DNA of 64,000 bases from Bacteroidia bacterium (GCA_965216465.1 CBDCFW010000006.1:1056001-1120000); one strand, 5' to 3'; shown: positions 17,217-34,216, counted from the first letter of the stretch. The notes: generated from the sequence alone by a model not told the origin. Program-made: numbers and translations.

Positions 17217-18839
17217 CTAATTTAAAATTTGATCGTATTCTAAAATGTCATTAAATATGGCCAATGCCTTATCTAAATCAAGATCGTCGTCAAACGACAC
17301 TTCAACCCTCCCTTTTTCGAAATAATATCGCTTTACAATTTCGTATTCGATTAGTTCTTTAATCTCTTCTTTGTTATTGGTCATGTCTTCTTTTTTTGTT
17401 TCCTTAAGTCGTTCTTCTAAGGCAACAAATTGTTCATCAAGAAGCTCAAAGTACTTATCTTTCTTTGCTTGTTCAACCATCTTTTCCAAAGCTTGTTCGG
17501 TTCGGGTGGTGTACGTGTAATCTTTATCTTTTACATAACTAACAAACTGTTGGTACAATTCGTCTGAAACGTCAAATTCTTGAGCCGCTGGTATAGATTC
17601 GTTTTTACTTCGAAACTCATTTGCGAACAGGAATGTTAGATTATTCTGCAATAAGCTTTGACTCACTTTTGAATAATTATCGAGCGGCACGTCGATATCA
17701 GGGAAAATACCGGCCCCATCGGTTACGGGTCGACCTTTTTGCGTAAAGAAGGTTTGTTTTGCACTATCCGCTACTTCCAATGCTTTGCCATCAACTTTGT
17801 TGCCATAATCAAGGCGTTGAATTAGTCTTCCACTTGGCAAGTAATACTTGCCGGTTGTCACTTTCATTTGCGTGTTATAGGTAAGTTTTTTAGTGGTTTG
17901 AACTAGCCCTTTTCCAAAGGAATTTCGTCCGATTAGCACAGCACGATCTAAGTCTTGCAAACTTCCAGCAACAATTTCACTTGCAGAGGCAGAATTTTTG
18001 TTGATTAATACAACTAGCGGAATATCCGTATCGACAGGGGACCCTTGGGTTTTGTATATTTGATTGTCTTCCTTGAATTTACCTTTTGTTGTTACAACTG
18101 TAACACCTCTATTTACAAATACATTTACAATTTTAACAGCTTCGATCAAGAGTCCTCCTCCATTATTGCGAAGGTCTAGAATCATTGATTTTGCACCTCT
18201 CGATTTTAGGTCAACGACGGCATCATAAACTTCTTTGCCCGCGTTAGGAGTGAAGCCAGTTAGCTTAATGTAGCCTGTATTTGTTCCGACGATATTGTAG
18301 TACGGAACATTCTTGAGTTTAATTTGCTGACGAGTTATGGTTTTCTCAATTTCACCAACTCCTAAACGGTCAACCACCATTTTTAGTTTAGTTCCAGCAT
18401 TCCCTTTTAGAAATTCAGAGATCTCACTCGATTTCTTACCTTTCATGTCAATACCGTCGATTCTTAAAATTTTGTCACCGGGTAATAATCCTGCCTTTTG
18501 TGCGGGGTAGTCATCGTACGGCGATTCAATAACAATGTAGCCATCTATCTCACGAATGCTTGATCCAATTCCGGCATAGGTTCCTGTTACCTCATAACGG
18601 TAATCTTCGGCTTGGGCTTCTGAATAAAAATTGGTGTATGGGTCTAGCGAATTAAGCATGCCATCTACAGCAGCCCGAATTAACTCACCAGGTTTAACTT
18701 CATCAACATATGAAGTATTTACTTCTTTGTAAACCGAAGCAAAAATGTCGAGGTTTTTAGATATTTCGAAGTAGTCGTCAGCTTTAAAGGCCAATAAGCC
18801 TAAACAGGCGACGCTAAATAATGCAATGTATTTTTTCAA
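17217..18839 (-). CDS. S41 C-terminal processing peptidase
   Basis: LDPYT, PDZ domain, DLRNNGGG, SASASEI, SFGKGLVQ. Confidence 0.95.
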   Translation of the reverse strand: MKKYIALFSVACLGLLAFKADDYFEISKNLDIFASVYKEVNTSYVDEVKPGELIRAAVDGMLNSLDPYTNFYSEAQAEDYRYEVTGTYAGIGSSIREIDGYIVIESPYDDYPAQKAGLLPGDKILRIDGIDMKGKKSSEISEFLKGNAGTKLKMVVDRLGVGEIEKTITRQQIKLKNVPYYNIVGTNTGYIKLTGFTPNAGKEVYDAVVDLKSRGAKSMILDLRNNGGGLLIEAVKIVNVFVNRGVTVVTTKGKFKEDNQIYKTQGSPVDTDIPLVVLINKNSASASEIVAGSLQDLDRAVLIGRNSFGKGLVQTTKKLTYNTQMKVTTGKYYLPSGRLIQRLDYGNKVDGKALEVADSAKQTFFTQKGRPVTDGAGIFPDIDVPLDNYSKVSQSLLQNNLTFLFANEFRSKNESIPAAQEFDVSDELYQQFVSYVKDKDYTYTTRTEQALEKMVEQAKKDKYFELLDEQFVALEERLKETKKEDMTNNKEEIKELIEYEIVKRYYFEKGRVEVSFDDDLDLDKALAIFNDILEYDQILN

Positions 18840-24380: not shown

Positions 24381-24544
24381 GGGTAGCAAACCTACATAAA
24401 TTTTTGCATTAGCCTACCTAAATTCTAGGCTTAGGCATAAAATTTGAATGCATTTTAAATATTTAAATAAATTTGTTCTGACACAGTTGTGACATTGAAA
24501 GTGTTTACCAAAGTGTACATTTTAGCATTAACTAGAAAAGCATC

Positions 24545-26515
24545 ATGAAACGAATATTAACTCTCACATTAATTCTGGTCTTTAACCTTGGATTTTTCCA
24601 GGCAAAGGCACCAATCAAGAAACTGGCTTTAATTGTTGCTATAGGCAACTATGAAGAAGCAACCGGATGGAAGAAGATTTCTTCGTTGAACGATGTTGCA
24701 CTAATTTCAGGGGCACTTGAATCTCAAGGATTTTCAAAATCTGATATCAAAGTTATTCGTGACGCGGAGGCATCAAAAGCAGGAATTATACAAGCACTAA
24801 AAGATCTTGAAAATCGCGCTGAAAAAGGAGATATTGTTGTGGTACATTTTAGCAGTCACGGACAGCAAATCGAAGACAACAACCGCGATGAATTGGATGG
24901 ATTAGACGAAGCTATAGTTGGCTTTGGGGCTCCAGCATACTTCGATGAGGGGTACAACGGTGAAAACCATTTAAGAGATGAGGAACTTGGTGAAAGATTG
25001 GATGATATCCGTCAAAAGATAGGAAAAGAGGGGGATGTTCTGGTTCTTGTAGATGCTTGCCACAGTGGAACAGCAACACGAGGGCCTGAAATTCCACGTG
25101 GAGGAGTAGGACCATATGTCAGCAAAAACTTCAAGAAGAAAGTTGTTGAGCATCAAGATATTGGAATGTTCGAAAAGAATAACCCGATGTCAAGAGGGTC
25201 TTCAGACATGGCTCCAATGGTTGTTATTAGCGGTTCACGAGCGGATGAAACCAATAAGGAGTTTAATGGTGCCGGATCTTTGTCGGTAGCTTTTTCAAGA
25301 AGCTTCAACAATTTAAACAGCAACTATTCATACAGAACACTCTTCAGCAAAATTGCTAAAGAAATGAGTGTAATTGCACCTAAACAAACCCCTGCCATTG
25401 AAGGAGATATCGATCGATTATTGTTTGGTGGAGAAGTGGTTTCTCAGGAGCTGTACTATGGCGTTCTAAGCTTAGATGAAGACGCAATTGTGATTAACGG
25501 TGGTGTGTTTACCGGTTTGAACGAAGAAACTACGATTAAAATATACCCAAGCGGCACGATCAATACCAAAGGTGTTGAACCAATAACAACTGGAACAATA
25601 TCTTTTGCTGAAGGCTTTGAATCGAATGCGATTTTAGATAAGCCGCTCGAAGGAAACGCATCAGATTACTGGGTTTTTATTGATGAGAAAACATTTGGAG
25701 ATGTAACAATCAAAGTGAGCTTGGATAAGATCGATGATAGAACTTTAAAGCAAAACCTTACCACTTTCTTTGAAGGATATCCTTTAGCTAATGTAAGCTC
25801 TGACGCTGAATTTTATCTGGATGAAGCAGGAAGCAGAGTAAAACTGGTTCGCGTGAGTAACGATGAAACATTCAAAAATCAAATTCCAGTGAATGATGGG
25901 TTTAGAAAGCTTAAGTCTACCCTTTCGAGCTATGCTCAAGGCAAGTTTTTAAAAGGACTTGAATTGAGTAATCCAGATTACAATATTGAGCTTCAACTTA
26001 TTCCAGTTAAGATGAAAGGGAATACTGTTGGTGATACTCTTGATATTGAAACCAAGCTTGACGACGGAGGGATGGCTGCTTTCAGTACCAAAGACACTGT
26101 GATTATTCGTTTGATAAACAACTCAACCTTCCCAGTATATTTCAACATTATTGATATTCAACCTGATGGTAAGATTAACCCAATTTTGCCAAATCCAAGA
26201 AAAAGTCACAACCCTGTAGACTTTAGAATTGGGGCAGGTGAAACCTTTGATGTTAGAGGAAAATATGTACACTTTAGTCCGCCATATGGAGTAGAGACAT
26301 TCAAGGTGTTTGCCAGCTATCAACCGCTCAATTTCTCACCAATCTTTATGACCAAAGGAGGTGGAAGCAGCACTCGCGGAAACTTGAGCAATGAGGTAGA
26401 AAAGTTATTTGCAGACAGTTATTCTATGAGCAGAGGAGCTGATGTTGGAAGCCTAAGTGCGAGCACGGATGCATGTACGTTCTCCTACACATTTAAAATA
26501 GTTAGACCTAATTAA
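24545..26515 (+). CDS. Exported caspase-family (C14) cysteine protease with C-terminal DUF4384-like domain
   Basis: Signal peptide; ALIVAIGNY, HFSSHG and DACHSG dyad, QTPAIEG; C-terminal YFNIIDIQPDG...PPYGVETFKVFAS. Confidence 0.9.
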   Translation: MKRILTLTLILVFNLGFFQAKAPIKKLALIVAIGNYEEATGWKKISSLNDVALISGALESQGFSKSDIKVIRDAEASKAGIIQALKDLENRAEKGDIVVVHFSSHGQQIEDNNRDELDGLDEAIVGFGAPAYFDEGYNGENHLRDEELGERLDDIRQKIGKEGDVLVLVDACHSGTATRGPEIPRGGVGPYVSKNFKKKVVEHQDIGMFEKNNPMSRGSSDMAPMVVISGSRADETNKEFNGAGSLSVAFSRSFNNLNSNYSYRTLFSKIAKEMSVIAPKQTPAIEGDIDRLLFGGEVVSQELYYGVLSLDEDAIVINGGVFTGLNEETTIKIYPSGTINTKGVEPITTGTISFAEGFESNAILDKPLEGNASDYWVFIDEKTFGDVTIKVSLDKIDDRTLKQNLTTFFEGYPLANVSSDAEFYLDEAGSRVKLVRVSNDETFKNQIPVNDGFRKLKSTLSSYAQGKFLKGLELSNPDYNIELQLIPVKMKGNTVGDTLDIETKLDDGGMAAFSTKDTVIIRLINNSTFPVYFNIIDIQPDGKINPILPNPRKSHNPVDFRIGAGETFDVRGKYVHFSPPYGVETFKVFASYQPLNFSPIFMTKGGGSSTRGNLSNEVEKLFADSYSMSRGADVGSLSASTDACTFSYTFKIVRPN

Positions 26516-26526
26516 TAAAGTAAATC

Positions 26527-28140
26527 ATGAAAAATAAATTAACCCTACTAATAATCGGCTTGCTTTTATCAAGTATGAGTTTTGCTCAAGACACTTTAAA
26601 AGGCAAACCAGAACCAAAATCCTTTCCCTTTGGGAATCCAATGGATACCGCTTCGCGCGGCTTCTATGGAATTGATGATCGTAAAGAAGTAGAAGACATC
26701 GATTGGATTAAGGATTACACCAGAGCTACGGCGGTGATGATAAGAAAGAAAGATCTCAAAGGGAACAAGCTTTATGCGCCTACTTTACGTCAAGAACTTG
26801 AATATGCTCATAAAACCAAAAAATTTGAAGGTGTTCGTTACCTAGACCAACCTATAGCCGCATACTGCACTGGGTTTTTAATAGCTCCAGATATTATGGT
26901 TACTGCAGGCCATTGTATAGAAACCATGGATGATGCAGATGACTACCTGTGGCTTTTTGATTACACGATTGAAAATAACTACAATCCAAGAACGGGTTAT
27001 TTGACTGTTGATCTTAACAATGTGTACCGCGTTACTGAAATAATGGATGCCTTGCTTTATGACGGAGCTCAGTTTGATGAAGATCTAAATCTGGTGGATG
27101 TAAGTTACGATTATTCATTCATGAAGCTTGATCGAGAATCTGACCGCAGACCATATCGTTTCAGAACGGGTGGAACAGTTGGATTATTTACTGATATGTA
27201 CACCATTGGTTGTCCGTCAGGCCTTCCCCTCAAACTTACAGATAATGCGTTTGTAGTTGGAAACAGTGAGAACGAATGGTTTAAAACCAATATTGATGGA
27301 TTCCCCGGGAATTCTGGAGGGCCCGTTTTTGATGAATTGGGATGGATTGAAGGCATTCATGTGAGAGGCAGTATTAAGTATTCTAAAGAGCGTAAAAAAT
27401 GGACTGGAGACTATATCTACGACAAAGATTGTGACTGTGTTAAAACAGTAAGTTGGTACGGAACTTATCAACCAACCGATGCAGAAAATTATGTAATTGG
27501 TTCTCATGAGCATCGCATCGGTTCAATTAAGAAAAGGTCAATTTTGGTCGAAGCGATTTACAACAATGTAGATTGGGCATTACGCCATAATGATAAAGAT
27601 AGACTAGATTTTTGGTTGGCTTACAGTTGGATTGTAGAATCTGATTACACAGCAGGTCGGGGCAAATTTGAACAGACAGCTGTCAAATTGAATAATCTTG
27701 AAATGCTGAAAAGACTACAAGATTTTGGAGGAAGTGTTAAGCTGTTAGATGAGAATGGTCGGAGCTTTATTTTTAACGCGATTGAGCACAAAAATGCTGA
27801 TATGCTACAATATTTGTTGCGTAAAGGAGTTAGTCCTAACAAAGCTGATTCAAAAGGAGTTTATCCTATTCAGTATGCGATGGATAAGTATCAAATCGAC
27901 ATGGTTAACATGTTGATTGAAAGAGGAGCAAAGGTTAACGTTAAAAATGGATATGGAAGCAGTTTGTTGCACGAGGCCGTTGAAATGGATAACATGGAAC
28001 TGGTAAGATTGCTCATAGCGAATGGTGCTGATCACAATGCTGAAGATGTTGATGGCTTAACTCCATTCAAATTAGCGAAGAAAAGAAAATACAAAAGCCT
28101 AAAGAAGTACTTGAAAAAAGTAAAGAAAGGCAAAGCCTAA
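26527..28140 (+). CDS. Exported trypsin-like (S1) serine protease with C-terminal ankyrin repeats
   Basis: Signal peptide; CTGFLI, TAGHC, DYSF, GNSGGP triad; about 4 ankyrin repeats (LLHEAV, LIANGAD, GLTPF). Confidence 0.9.
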   Translation: MKNKLTLLIIGLLLSSMSFAQDTLKGKPEPKSFPFGNPMDTASRGFYGIDDRKEVEDIDWIKDYTRATAVMIRKKDLKGNKLYAPTLRQELEYAHKTKKFEGVRYLDQPIAAYCTGFLIAPDIMVTAGHCIETMDDADDYLWLFDYTIENNYNPRTGYLTVDLNNVYRVTEIMDALLYDGAQFDEDLNLVDVSYDYSFMKLDRESDRRPYRFRTGGTVGLFTDMYTIGCPSGLPLKLTDNAFVVGNSENEWFKTNIDGFPGNSGGPVFDELGWIEGIHVRGSIKYSKERKKWTGDYIYDKDCDCVKTVSWYGTYQPTDAENYVIGSHEHRIGSIKKRSILVEAIYNNVDWALRHNDKDRLDFWLAYSWIVESDYTAGRGKFEQTAVKLNNLEMLKRLQDFGGSVKLLDENGRSFIFNAIEHKNADMLQYLLRKGVSPNKADSKGVYPIQYAMDKYQIDMVNMLIERGAKVNVKNGYGSSLLHEAVEMDNMELVRLLIANGADHNAEDVDGLTPFKLAKKRKYKSLKKYLKKVKKGKA

Positions 28141-28143
28141 ATC

Positions 28144-29703
28144 ATGAGAATTCTCTTATCCATATTCTTAATTAGCCTTACAATTTGGTCTATTGCACAG
28201 GTCAAACCTGAAACAGAAGCGTACGAGTTCCCTTACGGAGATTTGGCAGACACTTCACGCGGGGTATTTGGCGATGACAATAGAAAAGAGGTTAAGGATG
28301 CAACGGAGTATCATCAGCTTGTTAGAGCAACCGCGGTGATGGTTCACAAGGATAAGATTCGAGGAAATAAAATATACAGTGAAACACTTCGTTCACGTTT
28401 GTCGCGAAAGTTTAATACAGATAGCTTTCATGAAAATGTGAAGTTTTTAGATCAACCGACTTGTGCAACATGTACAGGATTTTTGATTGCTCCTGATATT
28501 TTAGTAACAGCAGGGCATTGCATCGAAAAGCTTGAAGATGCAAAAAACTACGTATGGGTGTTTGACTATACTTTAGAAAAAAACTACAACGCATTTGCAG
28601 GCTATATTACGATTGATACTGCGGATATTTATTCCGTGACAGAAGTAATGGGGGCTTATTTTCAGTCGCTGAGTACCTATACCGATTACTCCTTTTTACG
28701 ATTGAATAAGAAGTCGAGTAGAGAACCCTATCATTTTAGAACAAGCGGTAAGGTGGCAAACTATAGCAATGTTTATACGATTGGATCTCCAACAGGATTG
28801 CCCCTAAAACTTGCAGACAATGCTTGGGTGGTGAACAATAGCTATGAAAGCTGGTTCAGAAACAGCATTGACGGATTTCCAGGAAACTCTGGTGGACCTG
28901 TATTTAACGAATATGGTCTCATTGAAGGAATTCATGTTCGAGGAGCAGTAGAATTAGCGGGTAAAAATTATACCGGCGACTATAAGTTCGATAGTACATG
29001 CAATTGTGTTAAAACAGTTCAATGGAGCTCAACTTGGGGAACTGAAGGTTCGCATGCTCATCGTATTACTGCCGTTCCTACGGAATTACTGCACGAAGCA
29101 CTGTATGGCAACTTTGTTTATGCCATTGATAATGGTGACATGGAGCGGTTGGAAGATTGGCTTGCCTATTCGTGGTTTACAAATTCTGAAATGGCACAGA
29201 AGCGAGGACGTTTTGAGTTTATGGTAGCAGAGAAAAACAACCTTGAAATGTTGAAACTTATCTTAGACCACAGTTTAAATCCAAGGGTAGTTGATTCAAA
29301 TGGTAAAAGTCTTTTGTTCTATGCTATGAATAACGACAATGAAGAAATGCTACGCTACCTATTACGTAAAGGAGTTAGCCCCAACAAAAGAGATAATCAA
29401 GAAAATTTGGTGTTGACAGAAGCAATAAGACAATCCAAGATCCCTATTGCACGAGCACTTATTGAACGAGGTGCAAATGTTAATGCAATAGATCATACAG
29501 GTGAAAATGCGTTACACATTGCGGCTCGAACCTGGAGTGTTGAATGGGTTGGGATGATTATAGCCAAAGGCGGAGATTATTCTATAAAAAATGAACAGGG
29601 TTGGGATGCGATTAAAATAGCGCGAAAGTCAAAAAATAAAGATGTTAAGCGTTATCTCAAACTTGTAAAAAAAGGCAAATTGCCGAGCATGATTTCAATC
29701 TGA
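28144..29703 (+). CDS. Exported trypsin-like (S1) serine protease with ankyrin repeats (paralog of previous gene)
   Basis: Signal peptide; TAGHC, DYSF, GNSGGP; ankyrin repeats (GENALHIAA, LIERGANVN). Confidence 0.9.
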   Translation: MRILLSIFLISLTIWSIAQVKPETEAYEFPYGDLADTSRGVFGDDNRKEVKDATEYHQLVRATAVMVHKDKIRGNKIYSETLRSRLSRKFNTDSFHENVKFLDQPTCATCTGFLIAPDILVTAGHCIEKLEDAKNYVWVFDYTLEKNYNAFAGYITIDTADIYSVTEVMGAYFQSLSTYTDYSFLRLNKKSSREPYHFRTSGKVANYSNVYTIGSPTGLPLKLADNAWVVNNSYESWFRNSIDGFPGNSGGPVFNEYGLIEGIHVRGAVELAGKNYTGDYKFDSTCNCVKTVQWSSTWGTEGSHAHRITAVPTELLHEALYGNFVYAIDNGDMERLEDWLAYSWFTNSEMAQKRGRFEFMVAEKNNLEMLKLILDHSLNPRVVDSNGKSLLFYAMNNDNEEMLRYLLRKGVSPNKRDNQENLVLTEAIRQSKIPIARALIERGANVNAIDHTGENALHIAARTWSVEWVGMIIAKGGDYSIKNEQGWDAIKIARKSKNKDVKRYLKLVKKGKLPSMISI

Positions 29704-31329: not shown

Positions 31330-31946
31330 CTACCAATTTACAGGCTTAACTAACTTAAATCCCGAGCCATTATCAATGATGTCATTAAATTGATTTTTCT
31401 TAATTATATTTTTTCCGATGATTATTGAGCCTTTTGAAGCTCGAGCGACAGATTGGTTATGTCGTTTTGGTGGAAAAGCTACAAAAACTCGCTTTTTTTC
31501 AAAGTAATGATGAATTGCTTTTATTGGAGGAACAAGGTCACTATCACCAGAAATTAGCATGGCCATATCACATTTATCTTGAAAGGCATCTAGCATTAAT
31601 TGAGTGGCAATATTTACATCCGTCATCTTTTCATTATAGCTGTTCCAGAGAAAGGAACATTGATTACATTTTATGGTATTTGACTGATATTGGCCAAAGT
31701 ATATCTTAACTTTTGTAGTTTTCAAAGCATCAAGATATAACGACTGGTTCCTTTCTTTGTGAAGATCGTTTTTTAAGCGACTTGTAAAATACTTCACTTC
31801 AATTAGTTCTTGATTTGGCTTCAATATAGATTGAACAAGCGATACGAGATTTAACCAACGATAATTACCAATTCAGCTTGTAGCAATCCAAAGTGAAGAT
31901 TGAATCCGTCGATATAGGCAATTACCCTTTCTGTAGTTTTTGACAT
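31330..31946 (-). pseudogene. NYN (LabA/DUF88-like PIN fold) nuclease with a 1-bp frameshift near 31870
   Basis: ATG 31946 gives MSKTTERVIAYIDGFNLHFG then stops; shifted frame continues GNYRWLNL...EKMTDVNIA...SGDSDLVP; span of 617 nt is one base short of a multiple of 3. Confidence 0.8.
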
Positions 31947-32208: not shown

Positions 32209-32568
32209 TTAGTTAATATCCCAAAACTGATAAAGTTTGTTGATCATAAAACTTTCGTCTTCGTCAACCGACTCATCAGCACGAACCAACTTTAAAGCAA
32301 AATCTAAGAAATCTATGCGTTCTTGTTCAGTAGAGTCGGCATAAAAGTCTTCGGCACATTTTTGCAATAACAAAGGATAGTCTTCTTCAGGTGTGGTACT
32401 CATAACTTCAAGCGCCGATTCGAAGTTGCCACCTAATGGGAAACTGTTTTGAATGTAGTCTACGATAATTTTTCCTTCTCGTGCATCAAAATCACCATCA
32501 ACGGCAGCCAAAATGCTCAGAATCAGGTATCCTGCTATGTCCTTGTTTTTTCTAGTTGTTGTAGCCAT
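32209..32568 (-). CDS. TerB-like family protein
   Basis: LAAVDGDFDARE and LVRADESVDEDE duplicated acidic motifs. Confidence 0.75.
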   Translation of the reverse strand: MATTTRKNKDIAGYLILSILAAVDGDFDAREGKIIVDYIQNSFPLGGNFESALEVMSTTPEEDYPLLLQKCAEDFYADSTEQERIDFLDFALKLVRADESVDEDESFMINKLYQFWDIN

Positions 32569-33232: not shown

Positions 33233-34216
33233 TTGAATTATATTGGTTCAAAACAACGCCTTATTCCTTATATCGGTAGAACGATTAAAACCTTTGTAGA
33301 GGGAGAGCTTAGTGACATGGTTTTCTGCGATTTGTTTGCAGGAACGGGCATAGTTGGCAACTATTTTAAATCAAGAACCAAACAAATAATCTCAAATGAT
33401 CTAGAGTTTTATAGCTATGTACTGAACCGGCATGCAATTGGCAACACCGAAAGTTTAGAGGTTAAAGAGCTACTAAGAGAACTTAATGCTACAGAAGGAG
33501 TTAAAGGTTTTGTCTACTCAAACTACTGCAGGGGTGGCGGTACTGATCGAAATTACTTTACAGACAGCAATGGAATGAAGATTGACGCCTGTAGAGTCAA
33601 GATAGAAGAATGGAAACAAGAAGACTGGATTAATGATGATCAATATTTTTATTTACTTGCTTCGCTTATTCATGCGGCAGATAAAGTAGCCAATACAGCA
33701 TCGGTGTATGGGGCGTACTTGAAGTCGATTAAGTACACCGCTGGATTTGATTTGGAGTTGAAACCTGTTAAATACAAGAAGACACATCAGAACAACTTGG
33801 TTTACCAAGAGGATGCCAATGAACTTCTGCCCAAATTAGAAGGGGATATTCTTTACCTCGACCCTCCCTACAACACCCGACAATACGGTTCAAATTATCA
33901 CATGCTCAATACTATTGCAAAGTACGATGGCTTTGAACCCTTTGGTAAAACGGGTTTACCACCTTACAACAAGTCCGATTATTGTAGTCGCAAAAGAGTG
34001 AAAAAAACGTTTAGTGACCTCTTTAAAGTGGTGAATTTTGAGTACATTTTTTTGAGTTACAACAACGAAGGCTTGTTAACCAAAGAATACATTTTAGAAA
34101 CATTATCTCGCCATGGTGATGTAAGGCTAAAGACTAAAAAGTACAAACGTTTTCTAGCCGAGAAGTCAAAACCAATGGAGAACATCCAAGAGTATTTGTT
34201 TTGTGTACGGAAATAG
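33233..34216 (+). CDS. N6-adenine DNA methyltransferase (D12 class), no adjacent restriction enzyme
   Basis: MNYIGSK, DLFAGTG SAM motif, YLDPPY, LSYNNEG, EYLF. Confidence 0.9.
   Translation: MNYIGSKQRLIPYIGRTIKTFVEGELSDMVFCDLFAGTGIVGNYFKSRTKQIISNDLEFYSYVLNRHAIGNTESLEVKELLRELNATEGVKGFVYSNYCRGGGTDRNYFTDSNGMKIDACRVKIEEWKQEDWINDDQYFYLLASLIHAADKVANTASVYGAYLKSIKYTAGFDLELKPVKYKKTHQNNLVYQEDANELLPKLEGDILYLDPPYNTRQYGSNYHMLNTIAKYDGFEPFGKTGLPPYNKSDYCSRKRVKKTFSDLFKVVNFEYIFLSYNNEGLLTKEYILETLSRHGDVRLKTKKYKRFLAEKSKPMENIQEYLFCVRK

Follow-up and report, generated by a model that had tools for sequence, protein, structure and literature searches.

The analysis concerned three adjacent genes in a 64,000-nucleotide stretch of DNA from a Bacteroidia bacterium with a marine-type Bacteroidota genome (GCA_965216465.1, CBDCFW010000006.1:1056001-1120000), which is called the window throughout, and the possibility that the protease encoded by the first gene matures those encoded by the other two. 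All three open reading frames (ORFs) are on the plus strand: gene 1 (24545-26515) specifies a 656-amino acid metacaspase-like protease of family C14 with a C-terminal beta-rich extension, gene 2 (26527-28140) a 537-amino acid S1B-like serine protease with ankyrin repeats that is a candidate zymogen, and gene 3 (28144-29703) a 519-amino acid paralog of gene 2 with the same features. The intergenic gaps are 11 nucleotides between genes 1 and 2 and 3 nucleotides between genes 2 and 3. Signal peptides were judged with a hydrophobicity heuristic based on a 10-residue Kyte-Doolittle window, and the cleavage points given below are approximate. Each of the three proteins has a basic start followed by a window with a mean of 2.9-3.1, as compared with 1.35 for a cytoplasmic neighbor, the dehydrogenase encoded downstream. 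No C-terminal sorting domain of the type IX secretion system (T9SS) was found in the three proteins among Pfam and NCBIfam matches at E<=0.01, and their identification as T9SS cargo was rejected on that basis. Together, the three genes likely constitute an operon-like unit whose products are proteases exported independently of T9SS. A preliminary description of the locus had reported close spacing, signal peptides on all three proteins, absence of a T9SS tail, and intact catalytic residues; these points were confirmed by the ORF coordinates, the hydrophobicity values, the family searches, and the homolog alignments described below, respectively.

The protein encoded by gene 1 has a signal-peptide-like N-terminus (residues ~1-20/22, nucleotides 24545-24610, on the basis of hydrophobicity and a helix at residues 2-17 in the structural model), and the p20 domain begins at K26 with no prodomain. 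Because a signal peptide replaces the prodomain, the protein is predicted to be exported. The Peptidase_C14 domain (PF00656; Pfam, E 5e-20) was delimited by Pfam and alignments to residues 25-289 (24617-25411). The catalytic residues H105 (24857-24859) and C172 (25058-25060) were invariant in 40 caspase homologs, as were D50 (in SLND) and D170 (in DACHSG), which align with their counterparts in the yeast metacaspase Yca1. Since both align with the corresponding Yca1 residues, D50 and D170 were equated with the pocket aspartates of TbMC2, Asp95 and Asp211, which bind basic P1 residues (PMC6426788). All characterized caspase homologs other than metazoan caspases prefer a basic residue at P1 (PMC8283722). 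The best matches of gene 1 among sequences of solved structures were Yca1 and Arabidopsis metacaspase 4 (AtMC4), and in a fold search with its model (mean predicted local distance difference test [pLDDT] score of 83) AtMC9, Geobacter GSU0716, AtMC4, the MALT1 paracaspase, TbMCA2, and Yca1 outranked true caspases. Given this metacaspase affinity, the invariant pocket aspartates, and the basic-P1 preference of relatives, specificity of gene 1 for Arg/Lys is a well-founded prediction.

Metacaspases are distinguished from orthocaspases by a p10-like region that follows the linker. Residues 222-275 of gene 1 gave weak second HMMER stretches (0.8-1.9 bits) against the p10 part of Yca1 and AtMC4, and the strands and helices at residues 225-296 of the model continue the caspase fold. 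An acidic cluster (D111, D115, E116, D118, D121, and E122) is also invariant in the 40 homologs and may bind calcium, as in metacaspases. The remainder of the protein (residues 300-656, 25442-26512) is strand-rich in the model and was interpreted as C-terminal beta-rich domains, which include a DUF4384-like stretch (residues 517-594, 26093-26326) that matched Pfam at E 1e-4, below the cut-off, and matched a DUF4384 cluster in an atlas feature search (0.93).

Gene 2 begins with a signal peptide (residues 1-20, ending SFA|Q; 26527-26586), placed by hydrophobicity and alignment, which is followed by a candidate propeptide (residues 21-44, 26587-26658) that contains a conserved [FY]P[FY] and ends at R44. 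Beyond the candidate cleavage site R44|G45 (codons at 26656-26661) are the S1 domain (residues 45-335, 26659-27531; triad H129/D195/S263) and an ankyrin domain (residues ~340-520) with a basic C-terminal tail (residues ~517-537), which together occupy 27544-28137. Gene 3 is 46-48% identical to gene 2 and is organized in the same way, with a signal peptide (residues 1-18, ending SIA|Q) and a candidate propeptide (residues 19-39) up to the candidate cleavage site R39|G40 (28144-28260), and with an S1 domain (residues ~40-320) and ankyrin repeats (residues ~325-505) recognized by Pfam (28261-29658). Pfam assigned Trypsin_2/Trypsin plus ankyrin repeats to both proteins. The triad was invariant in 41 homologous S1 proteases with ankyrin repeats (S1-Ank), and GNSGxP surrounds the catalytic Ser. 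In a PDB sequence search with the whole zymogen ankyrin matches dominated, and the protease part alone gave weak matches until a family profile was used; a fold search with the S1-Ank model returned ankyrin and DARPin matches only and was uninformative on the protease domain. The profile search of the protease domain ranked the glutamyl endopeptidase 1p3c first (E 1.7e-12) and SplA second (6.7e-08), with V8, exfoliative toxins, and SplB/E lower down and interleaved with trypsins, granzyme B, and HtrA1. The nearest relatives of the window serine proteases were therefore taken to be S1B enzymes. The activity of V8 and SplB hinges on an exact free N-terminus. The same requirement has been described for proSspA (PMC3454333). 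In the AlphaFold2 model of gene 2 (mean pLDDT 86, predicted template modeling score 0.82), the only stretches with pLDDT<50 were residues 20-23 and 38-49, the latter of which contains R44|G45.

Two further features of these proteins were observed. The first residue after the predicted signal-peptide cut is Gln in both (Q21 of gene 2, 26587-26589; Q19 of gene 3, 28198-28200), and this Gln was invariant in the 41 S1-Ank homologs; in Bacteroidota, an N-terminal Gln left by signal peptidase is often cyclized to pyroglutamate. A conserved and strongly basic C-terminal tail with the consensus KKxKxKxxxKYLKKxxKG ends nearly all S1-Ank proteins (28075-28137 and ~29620-29700 in the window), was modeled as a confident helix in gene 2, and could bind anionic lipid, lipopolysaccharide, or another polyanion.

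The junction sequences quoted in the preliminary description were located exactly: DTASRGFYGIDDR constitutes residues 40-52 of the gene 2 protein (26644-26682) and DTSRGVFGDDNR residues 36-47 of the gene 3 protein (28249-28284). The list of S1-Ank homologs comprised 541 matches, which included Winogradskyella, Leeuwenhoekiella, and Seonamhaeicola and indicated that the architecture is common in Flavobacteriia; the best 120 were used, as were the best 120 of the caspase list. The pattern R|G-x-[FYW]-[GD]-x-x-x-R was present in 120/120 of these best S1-Ank matches out of 541, and the P2 residue before the site Arg was S, T, A, or P in 113/120. Within the diverse alignment of 41 sequences R44, G45, P34, and Q21 were invariant and F35 was conserved in at least 90%. 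Fourteen S1-Ank genes from ten related loci, among them copies down to ~33% identity, had Arg at P1 without exception (14/14) and Gly at P1' in 13/14. The wider S1 family was sampled by comparing the protease part against 1.8 billion representatives, which yielded 3042 matches at E<=1e-10. For most of the best 150 of the 3042 (280-450 amino acids), similarity starts at residues 42-47 of the window protein and at their own residues ~20-35, and S1-only relatives have a median of 27 residues ahead of the motif, which places it directly after the signal peptide. A Bdellovibrionales relative has a signal peptide ending in THA that abuts IIFGQDNR, and other Bdellovibrionota relatives have up to five more residues. 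Thus, conservation of the Arg before a GxxGxDxR-type motif, which the preliminary description had put forward as a check, was upheld, and the short propeptide that it described ends in Arg at the point where relatives start their mature chain. The combination of Arg with an invariant Gly at P1' is specific to S1-Ank and is also found at the caspase's own sites. Because the invariant Arg sits where the mature chains of relatives begin, the junction is flexible in the model, and the protease domain has S1B affinity, it is quite probable that residues 21-44 of gene 2 and 19-39 of gene 3 are propeptides and that both serine proteases are made as zymogens and cleaved at R|G.

The motifs listed for the caspase in the preliminary description (DACHSGTATRG, PRG, MSRG, STRG, and MSRG) are all present, and the RG motifs place Arg at residues 179, 185, 217, 611, and 630. 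Each of these five is followed by Gly and preceded mostly by S, T, A, or P. Among the 40 caspase homologs, conservation of the Arg was complete for R179, R185, and R630 (40/40 each), high for R611 (32/40), and lower for R217 (18/40); a sixth RG (VRG, R571) is unconserved. Composition-preserving shuffles contained 0.55 [STAP]RG on average as compared with the five observed, and 1 of 20000 shuffles reached five. The segments of the caspase model with pLDDT<50 are residues 175-180, 208-218, 609-612, and 630-632, each of which holds one [ST]RG and is predicted to be an exposed loop; the binomial chance that four of six RG fall within these 24 of 656 residues was 2.5e-5. The linker after the strand bearing the catalytic Cys (residues 175-224, 25067-25216) contains R179|G180, R185|G186, and R217|G218 and is a candidate self-processing region. 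It has no regular structure in the model between the strands at residues 164-170 and 225-229, and we take its position to be that of the intersubunit linker that is cut on activation of caspases and metacaspases. Two further candidate sites, STR611|G and SR630|G, lie in residues 609-632 (26369-26440) and were assigned on the basis of conservation and pLDDT<50. The RG sites were kept in 8/8 C14-DUF4384 genes adjoining S1-Ank in other genomes, save for one extra paralog that has no first RG, and three other caspase-type proteins in the same neighborhoods were without them. The extra paralog (L006:3781-5829) has CYSG for CHSG after the catalytic Cys and TRS for TRG at the first site, and may be a diverged or regulatory copy.

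Gene linkage was assessed in a genome scan that gave at least 74 loci, mostly generic GNSGGPVF matches, of which 11 hold true S1-Ank relatives. Recurrence of C14 and S1-ankyrin genes as neighbors in other genomes, expected under the proposal of the preliminary description, was found: among the matches listed, a C14-DUF4384 homolog was near S1-Ank in 7/11 loci, including 6/6 loci for which both flanks were available, and in the rest (L002, L003, L009, and L012) the contig ends beside or inside the S1-Ank gene. The caspase is immediately upstream of S1-Ank in L001, L005, L006, L007, and L010 and ~3 kb downstream in L004 and L008. Copy numbers of caspase and S1-Ank genes were two and two in L006, one and three in L007, and one and two in L010. 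Fourteen further contigs are apparently common to the S1-Ank and caspase matches listed, which was used as a proxy for co-residence; one of these, of 170367 bases, bears the nearest relative of each of the three proteins among the matches listed.

Fusion proteins were also considered. The protein P0276 (1830 amino acids) combines a pair of S1 domains with an intact C14 domain in one chain; the second S1 domain belongs to the family found in the window, is preceded by KR|VYGDDNR, and is situated ~80 residues upstream of the C14 domain. Alphaproteobacterial proteins in which a trypsin-like domain is fused to a pseudo-p20 domain with QC and to DUF4384 were described by Klemencic et al. (PMC6426788). 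Both types of fusion speak for a functional connection between S1 and C14. A search for longer fused caspase forms (1149-3280 amino acids) gave three weak matches, none with a trypsin domain. P0358 (1159 amino acids) has a front part similar to P0276 and an astacin-like stretch, and in other lineages members of the S1 family occur as fusions with proprotein-convertase P-domains and fibronectin type III domains and, in one case, with an Endonuclease I domain (P0262, P0271, P0293, P0353, P0357, P0376, and P0379).

Related loci from Leeuwenhoekiella and Winogradskyella contain additional genes (L004:9561-16522, L008:9562-17542, L005:4535-17511, and L009:2528-6638). Their products are an exported alpha/beta hydrolase (DUF900), a conserved exported protein that has 472-474 amino acids and matches no Pfam family, a CHAT and a TPR protein, and large proteins with a C14 domain at the C-terminus; L009 encodes a WD40-caspase and shares the downstream dehydrogenase with the window. 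The DUF900, 472-474-amino acid, CHAT, TPR, and large-caspase genes were not found in the window.

The neighboring caspase is proposed to be the convertase of the two zymogens, a reading to which we assign a probability of roughly 0.45. Metacaspases undergo calcium-dependent self-processing after Arg/Lys. We infer each of the cleavage events, their order, the cellular location, and the biological role as follows. The gene 1 protein would be synthesized with the linker downstream of its catalytic Cys still intact, and outside the cytoplasm it would cut itself at the conserved [ST]R|G sites, with calcium as a plausible trigger. The caspase would then cleave the 21-24-residue propeptides off both S1-Ank proteases at [STAP]-R|G, which would free the N-terminus needed by the serine proteases, and the matured enzymes, aimed by their ankyrin repeats, would attack their targets. 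A more specific version holds that the exported metacaspase, which would also cut itself, is the dedicated convertase of ankyrin S1B zymogens at the shared [STAP]R|G and that the module may lie at the heart of an envelope system for execution or defense that depends on a trigger, and not be a feeding set. This version was suggested by the related loci, which add exported caspase, CHAT, WD40, TPR, and lipase-like genes, and is tentative and on balance doubtful. As to the role, trigger-dependent envelope proteolysis or defense, or plain protein scavenging, would be our guess.

Several observations weigh against the caspase as convertase. The site Arg by itself does not single out the caspase, because S1-only relatives without a nearby caspase also have a basic P1: of the 107 non-ankyrin representatives with a recognizable motif, 61 had Lys and 9 had Arg at P1, with Val, Ile, or Ala as the usual next residue. 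Such relatives would be matured otherwise or by themselves, and the same route could therefore serve S1-Ank. No caspase was present in the 8 kb upstream of S1-Ank in L002 and L003, in which the downstream side is missing, and Flavobacterium, Myroides, and Belliella were among the caspase matches and absent from the S1-Ank matches listed (best 120 each). No alignment was obtained between the GxxGxDxR motif and the first residues of the mature chain of a solved S1B protease: the alignment from the profile search begins only at chain residue 30, and a short-segment search with GFYGIDDR against solved S1B chains gave no relevant match; the motif is assumed here to mark the mature N-terminus from the signal peptides of relatives. 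The low pLDDT values at the sites denote predicted flexibility and are no sign of cleavage. The direction of cleavage is a further point, since the caspase linker could itself be a target of the serine proteases, or the two could act on each other in mutual feedback. A complex prediction for caspase residues 21-300 and zymogen residues 22-537, made without control runs, had a score of 0.00 and a mark of 0.32 and counts neither way. The covariation of Arg and invariant Gly with the caspase sites favors the caspase, without proof. Accordingly, the zymogens, the conserved caspase neighbor, the Arg/Lys branch, and the conserved loop motifs of the cascade put forward in the preliminary description were retained, whereas the caspase as the cutter, the direction of cleavage, and a role in signaling, defense, or predation are kept as proposals.

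The alternative that best survives is self- or cross-activation, in which the S1-Ank proteases are specific for Arg/Lys and remove each other's propeptides, the caspase being a substrate or feedback partner. Trypsinogen self-activates and granzyme B cuts procaspases, which provide analogies. The basic P1 in 70/107 non-ankyrin relatives fits this model, as no caspase neighbor was seen in their loci: in S1-only loci of Bdellovibrionota, no C14 or CHAT neighbor was detected by Pfam (4 loci) or by tblastn (5 loci), an absence that was also counted in favor of a link between the caspase and S1-Ank. The same motif on all three proteins suits either direction of cleavage, and the presence of 1 to 3 S1-Ank paralogs per locus favors trans-activation. 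An Asp six residues before the catalytic Ser (Ser-6), presumably chymotrypsin position 189 by simple counting, was present in 131/132 family members and would agree with basic specificity. However, the closest solved relative, 1p3c, has the same Asp and is Glu-specific, so that this residue is no guide to S1-Ank specificity. We take the determinants of Glu specificity to be His at the 213-like position and Ser/Thr at the 190-like position, and assume that the His of GIH is that His. GIH is present in both window serine proteases, the same position being Leu in 110/121 wider relatives, and the 190-like residue is Gly in the window proteins as opposed to Thr in 1p3c. The pocket specificity of S1-Ank is therefore unreadable from sequence, which counts against any firm choice of the caspase. 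Self-activation would leave the shift at P1' from Val/Ile/Ala to an invariant Gly, matching the caspase sites, unexplained, and R179, R185, and R630 were invariant in caspases of genera without S1-Ank among the matches listed, which argues weakly in the same direction. In addition, documented S1B enzymes with a non-cognate P1 need a second protease (PMC8767453, PMC3454333). Overall, self- or cross-activation was considered rather unlikely.

Maturation by an unlinked convertase was rated as less probable still. Here, a housekeeping envelope or extracellular protease would cut at R|G, and the neighborhood would represent co-regulated degradative enzymes, for example for scavenging by marine Flavobacteriia. 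S1-only relatives with Lys or Arg at P1 do sit among housekeeping genes, and the trio itself is embedded among ordinary metabolic genes, being flanked upstream by a divergent gene for aminopeptidase P and a gene for a beta-CASP RNase and downstream by one for an aldehyde dehydrogenase that NCBIfam assigns to the L-piperidine-6-carboxylate dehydrogenases; moreover, no known defense system was recognized by PADLOC. Against this, synteny survives down to ~33% identity and through rearrangements, the caspase being directly upstream in some loci and 3 kb downstream in others; one natural protein joins S1 and C14 in a single chain; and [STAP]RG is shared by flexible loops of both protein families. 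Finally, it is improbable that the 21-24 residues stay in place, with RG and [FY]P[FY] as structural or binding elements of three independent proteins, since the second conserved motif (P34/F35) in the segment and conserved RG in ordered parts (e.g. R280-G281 in a core strand) are outweighed by relatives that have no such segment and start at the motif, by the low confidence and lack of regular structure of the segment in the model, and by the dependence on an exact free N-terminus noted above for V8, SplB, and proSspA.

Other features of the region were recorded. The sequence TAAATTTG at 24468-24475 (plus strand), ~70 nucleotides upstream of the gene 1 start codon, fits TAnnTTTG, the Bacteroidota -7 promoter consensus, and is a weak lead. 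Scans of the region for sigma-70 promoters and terminators remained at background level, sigma-70 sites being no commoner than in shuffles. A known anti-phage defense system was rejected, as matches to PADLOC-DB 2.0 were to generic caspase, ankyrin, and protease domains with no system-specific set. Just downstream of the aldehyde dehydrogenase are genes for an NYN-domain protein and a TerB-like protein (31330-31824 and 32209-32568, both minus strand), and a D12-class N6-adenine DNA methyltransferase is encoded at 33233-34216 (plus strand), with no restriction enzyme recognized among the neighboring ORFs scanned. An exported-type S41 C-terminal processing peptidase with PDZ and CtpB-like N-terminal domains is encoded at 17217-18839 (minus strand) and is a conceivable alternative processing enzyme for the trio, to which nothing links it.

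The proposed cascade was compared with known systems. In Staphylococcus, Aur activates SspA, an S1B zymogen that loses its propeptide to a protease from a different catalytic class, and the partners are co-expressed (PMC3454333). The window resembles this Aur-SspA-SspB cascade in having an exported S1B-type zymogen that would be matured by a different protease class. It differs in that a metacaspase-like cysteine protease of clan CD, rather than an M4 metalloprotease, is the candidate convertase, this cysteine protease would act upstream and not downstream of the serine proteases, and the latter are fused to ankyrin repeats; the host belongs to the Gram-negative Bacteroidota, for which reason the proteins probably operate in the periplasm or envelope. 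In Bacillus subtilis, Bpr processes Mpr, whose own specificity does not suit the P1 residue at its propeptide junction, so that it is unable to cleave there itself (PMC8767453). The window would be similar in that an S1B zymogen has a second exported protease as its maturase, but Bpr is an S8 subtilase, whereas the candidate described here is a neighboring C14 protease with an invariant [STAP]R|G site. The bpr gene is reportedly not encoded next to mpr.

Metacaspases and orthocaspases self-process in the linker after the catalytic Cys. Gene 1 shares with AtMC9, AtMC4, TbMCA2, Yca1, and MaOC1 the fold, the His-Cys dyad, the pocket aspartates, and basic sites in that linker, and differs from them in having a signal peptide in place of a prodomain, two beta-rich C-terminal domains, and candidate substrates encoded next door. 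Described bacterial caspase homologs are mostly discussed as cytoplasmic (PMC8195603, PMC8283722). The alphaproteobacterial fusions likewise connect an S1 protease, p20, and DUF4384 functionally, but in a single chain whose p20 has no catalytic His, whereas the window has separate genes, an intact dyad, ankyrin repeats, and a propeptide (PMC6426788). Arg-gingipains of Porphyromonas gingivalis are an example of a clan CD Arg-specific cysteine protease that processes other exported proteins (PMC4138498); these are C25 enzymes with a prodomain of ~200 residues and are T9SS cargo, whereas gene 1 is a C14 protease with no T9SS tail detected. Activation of one clan CD protease by another has been described for SAVED-CHAT and PCaspase of type III-B clustered regularly interspaced short palindromic repeats (CRISPR) systems (10.1101/2023.06.23.546230), which are cytoplasmic, triggered by cyclic oligoadenylate, and encoded at a CRISPR locus, none of which applies to the window locus. 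The related loci share variable, protease-rich neighborhoods with the conflict systems of Kaur and colleagues, which have cytoplasmic nucleoside triphosphatase cores and for which exported forms or a pair of C14 and S1-Ank are not mentioned in the portion of the source available (PMC8195603). No description of a C14 and S1-Ank module was found in the literature searched, with subscription journals and supplementary files outside the search. The view of the preliminary description that such a system had not been described thus holds for the operon in that literature, but a related fusion of trypsin-like, p20, and DUF4384 domains is in print (PMC6426788).

Bacterial caspase homologs are widespread, a natural substrate is known for almost none of them, and discussion has centered on cytoplasmic death and defense. 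What this locus adds is an exported caspase homolog for which a substrate, a cleavage site, and an order of events are all suggested by the sequence. If the proposal is true, the two serine proteases would be the first natural substrates for a bacterial caspase homolog, and the trio would constitute the first caspase-to-serine-protease cascade in the bacterial envelope. It would extend cascades of the Staphylococcus and Bacillus type to Gram-negative Bacteroidota, with a clan CD enzyme on top, and would provide a handle on a gene module common to many marine Flavobacteriia.

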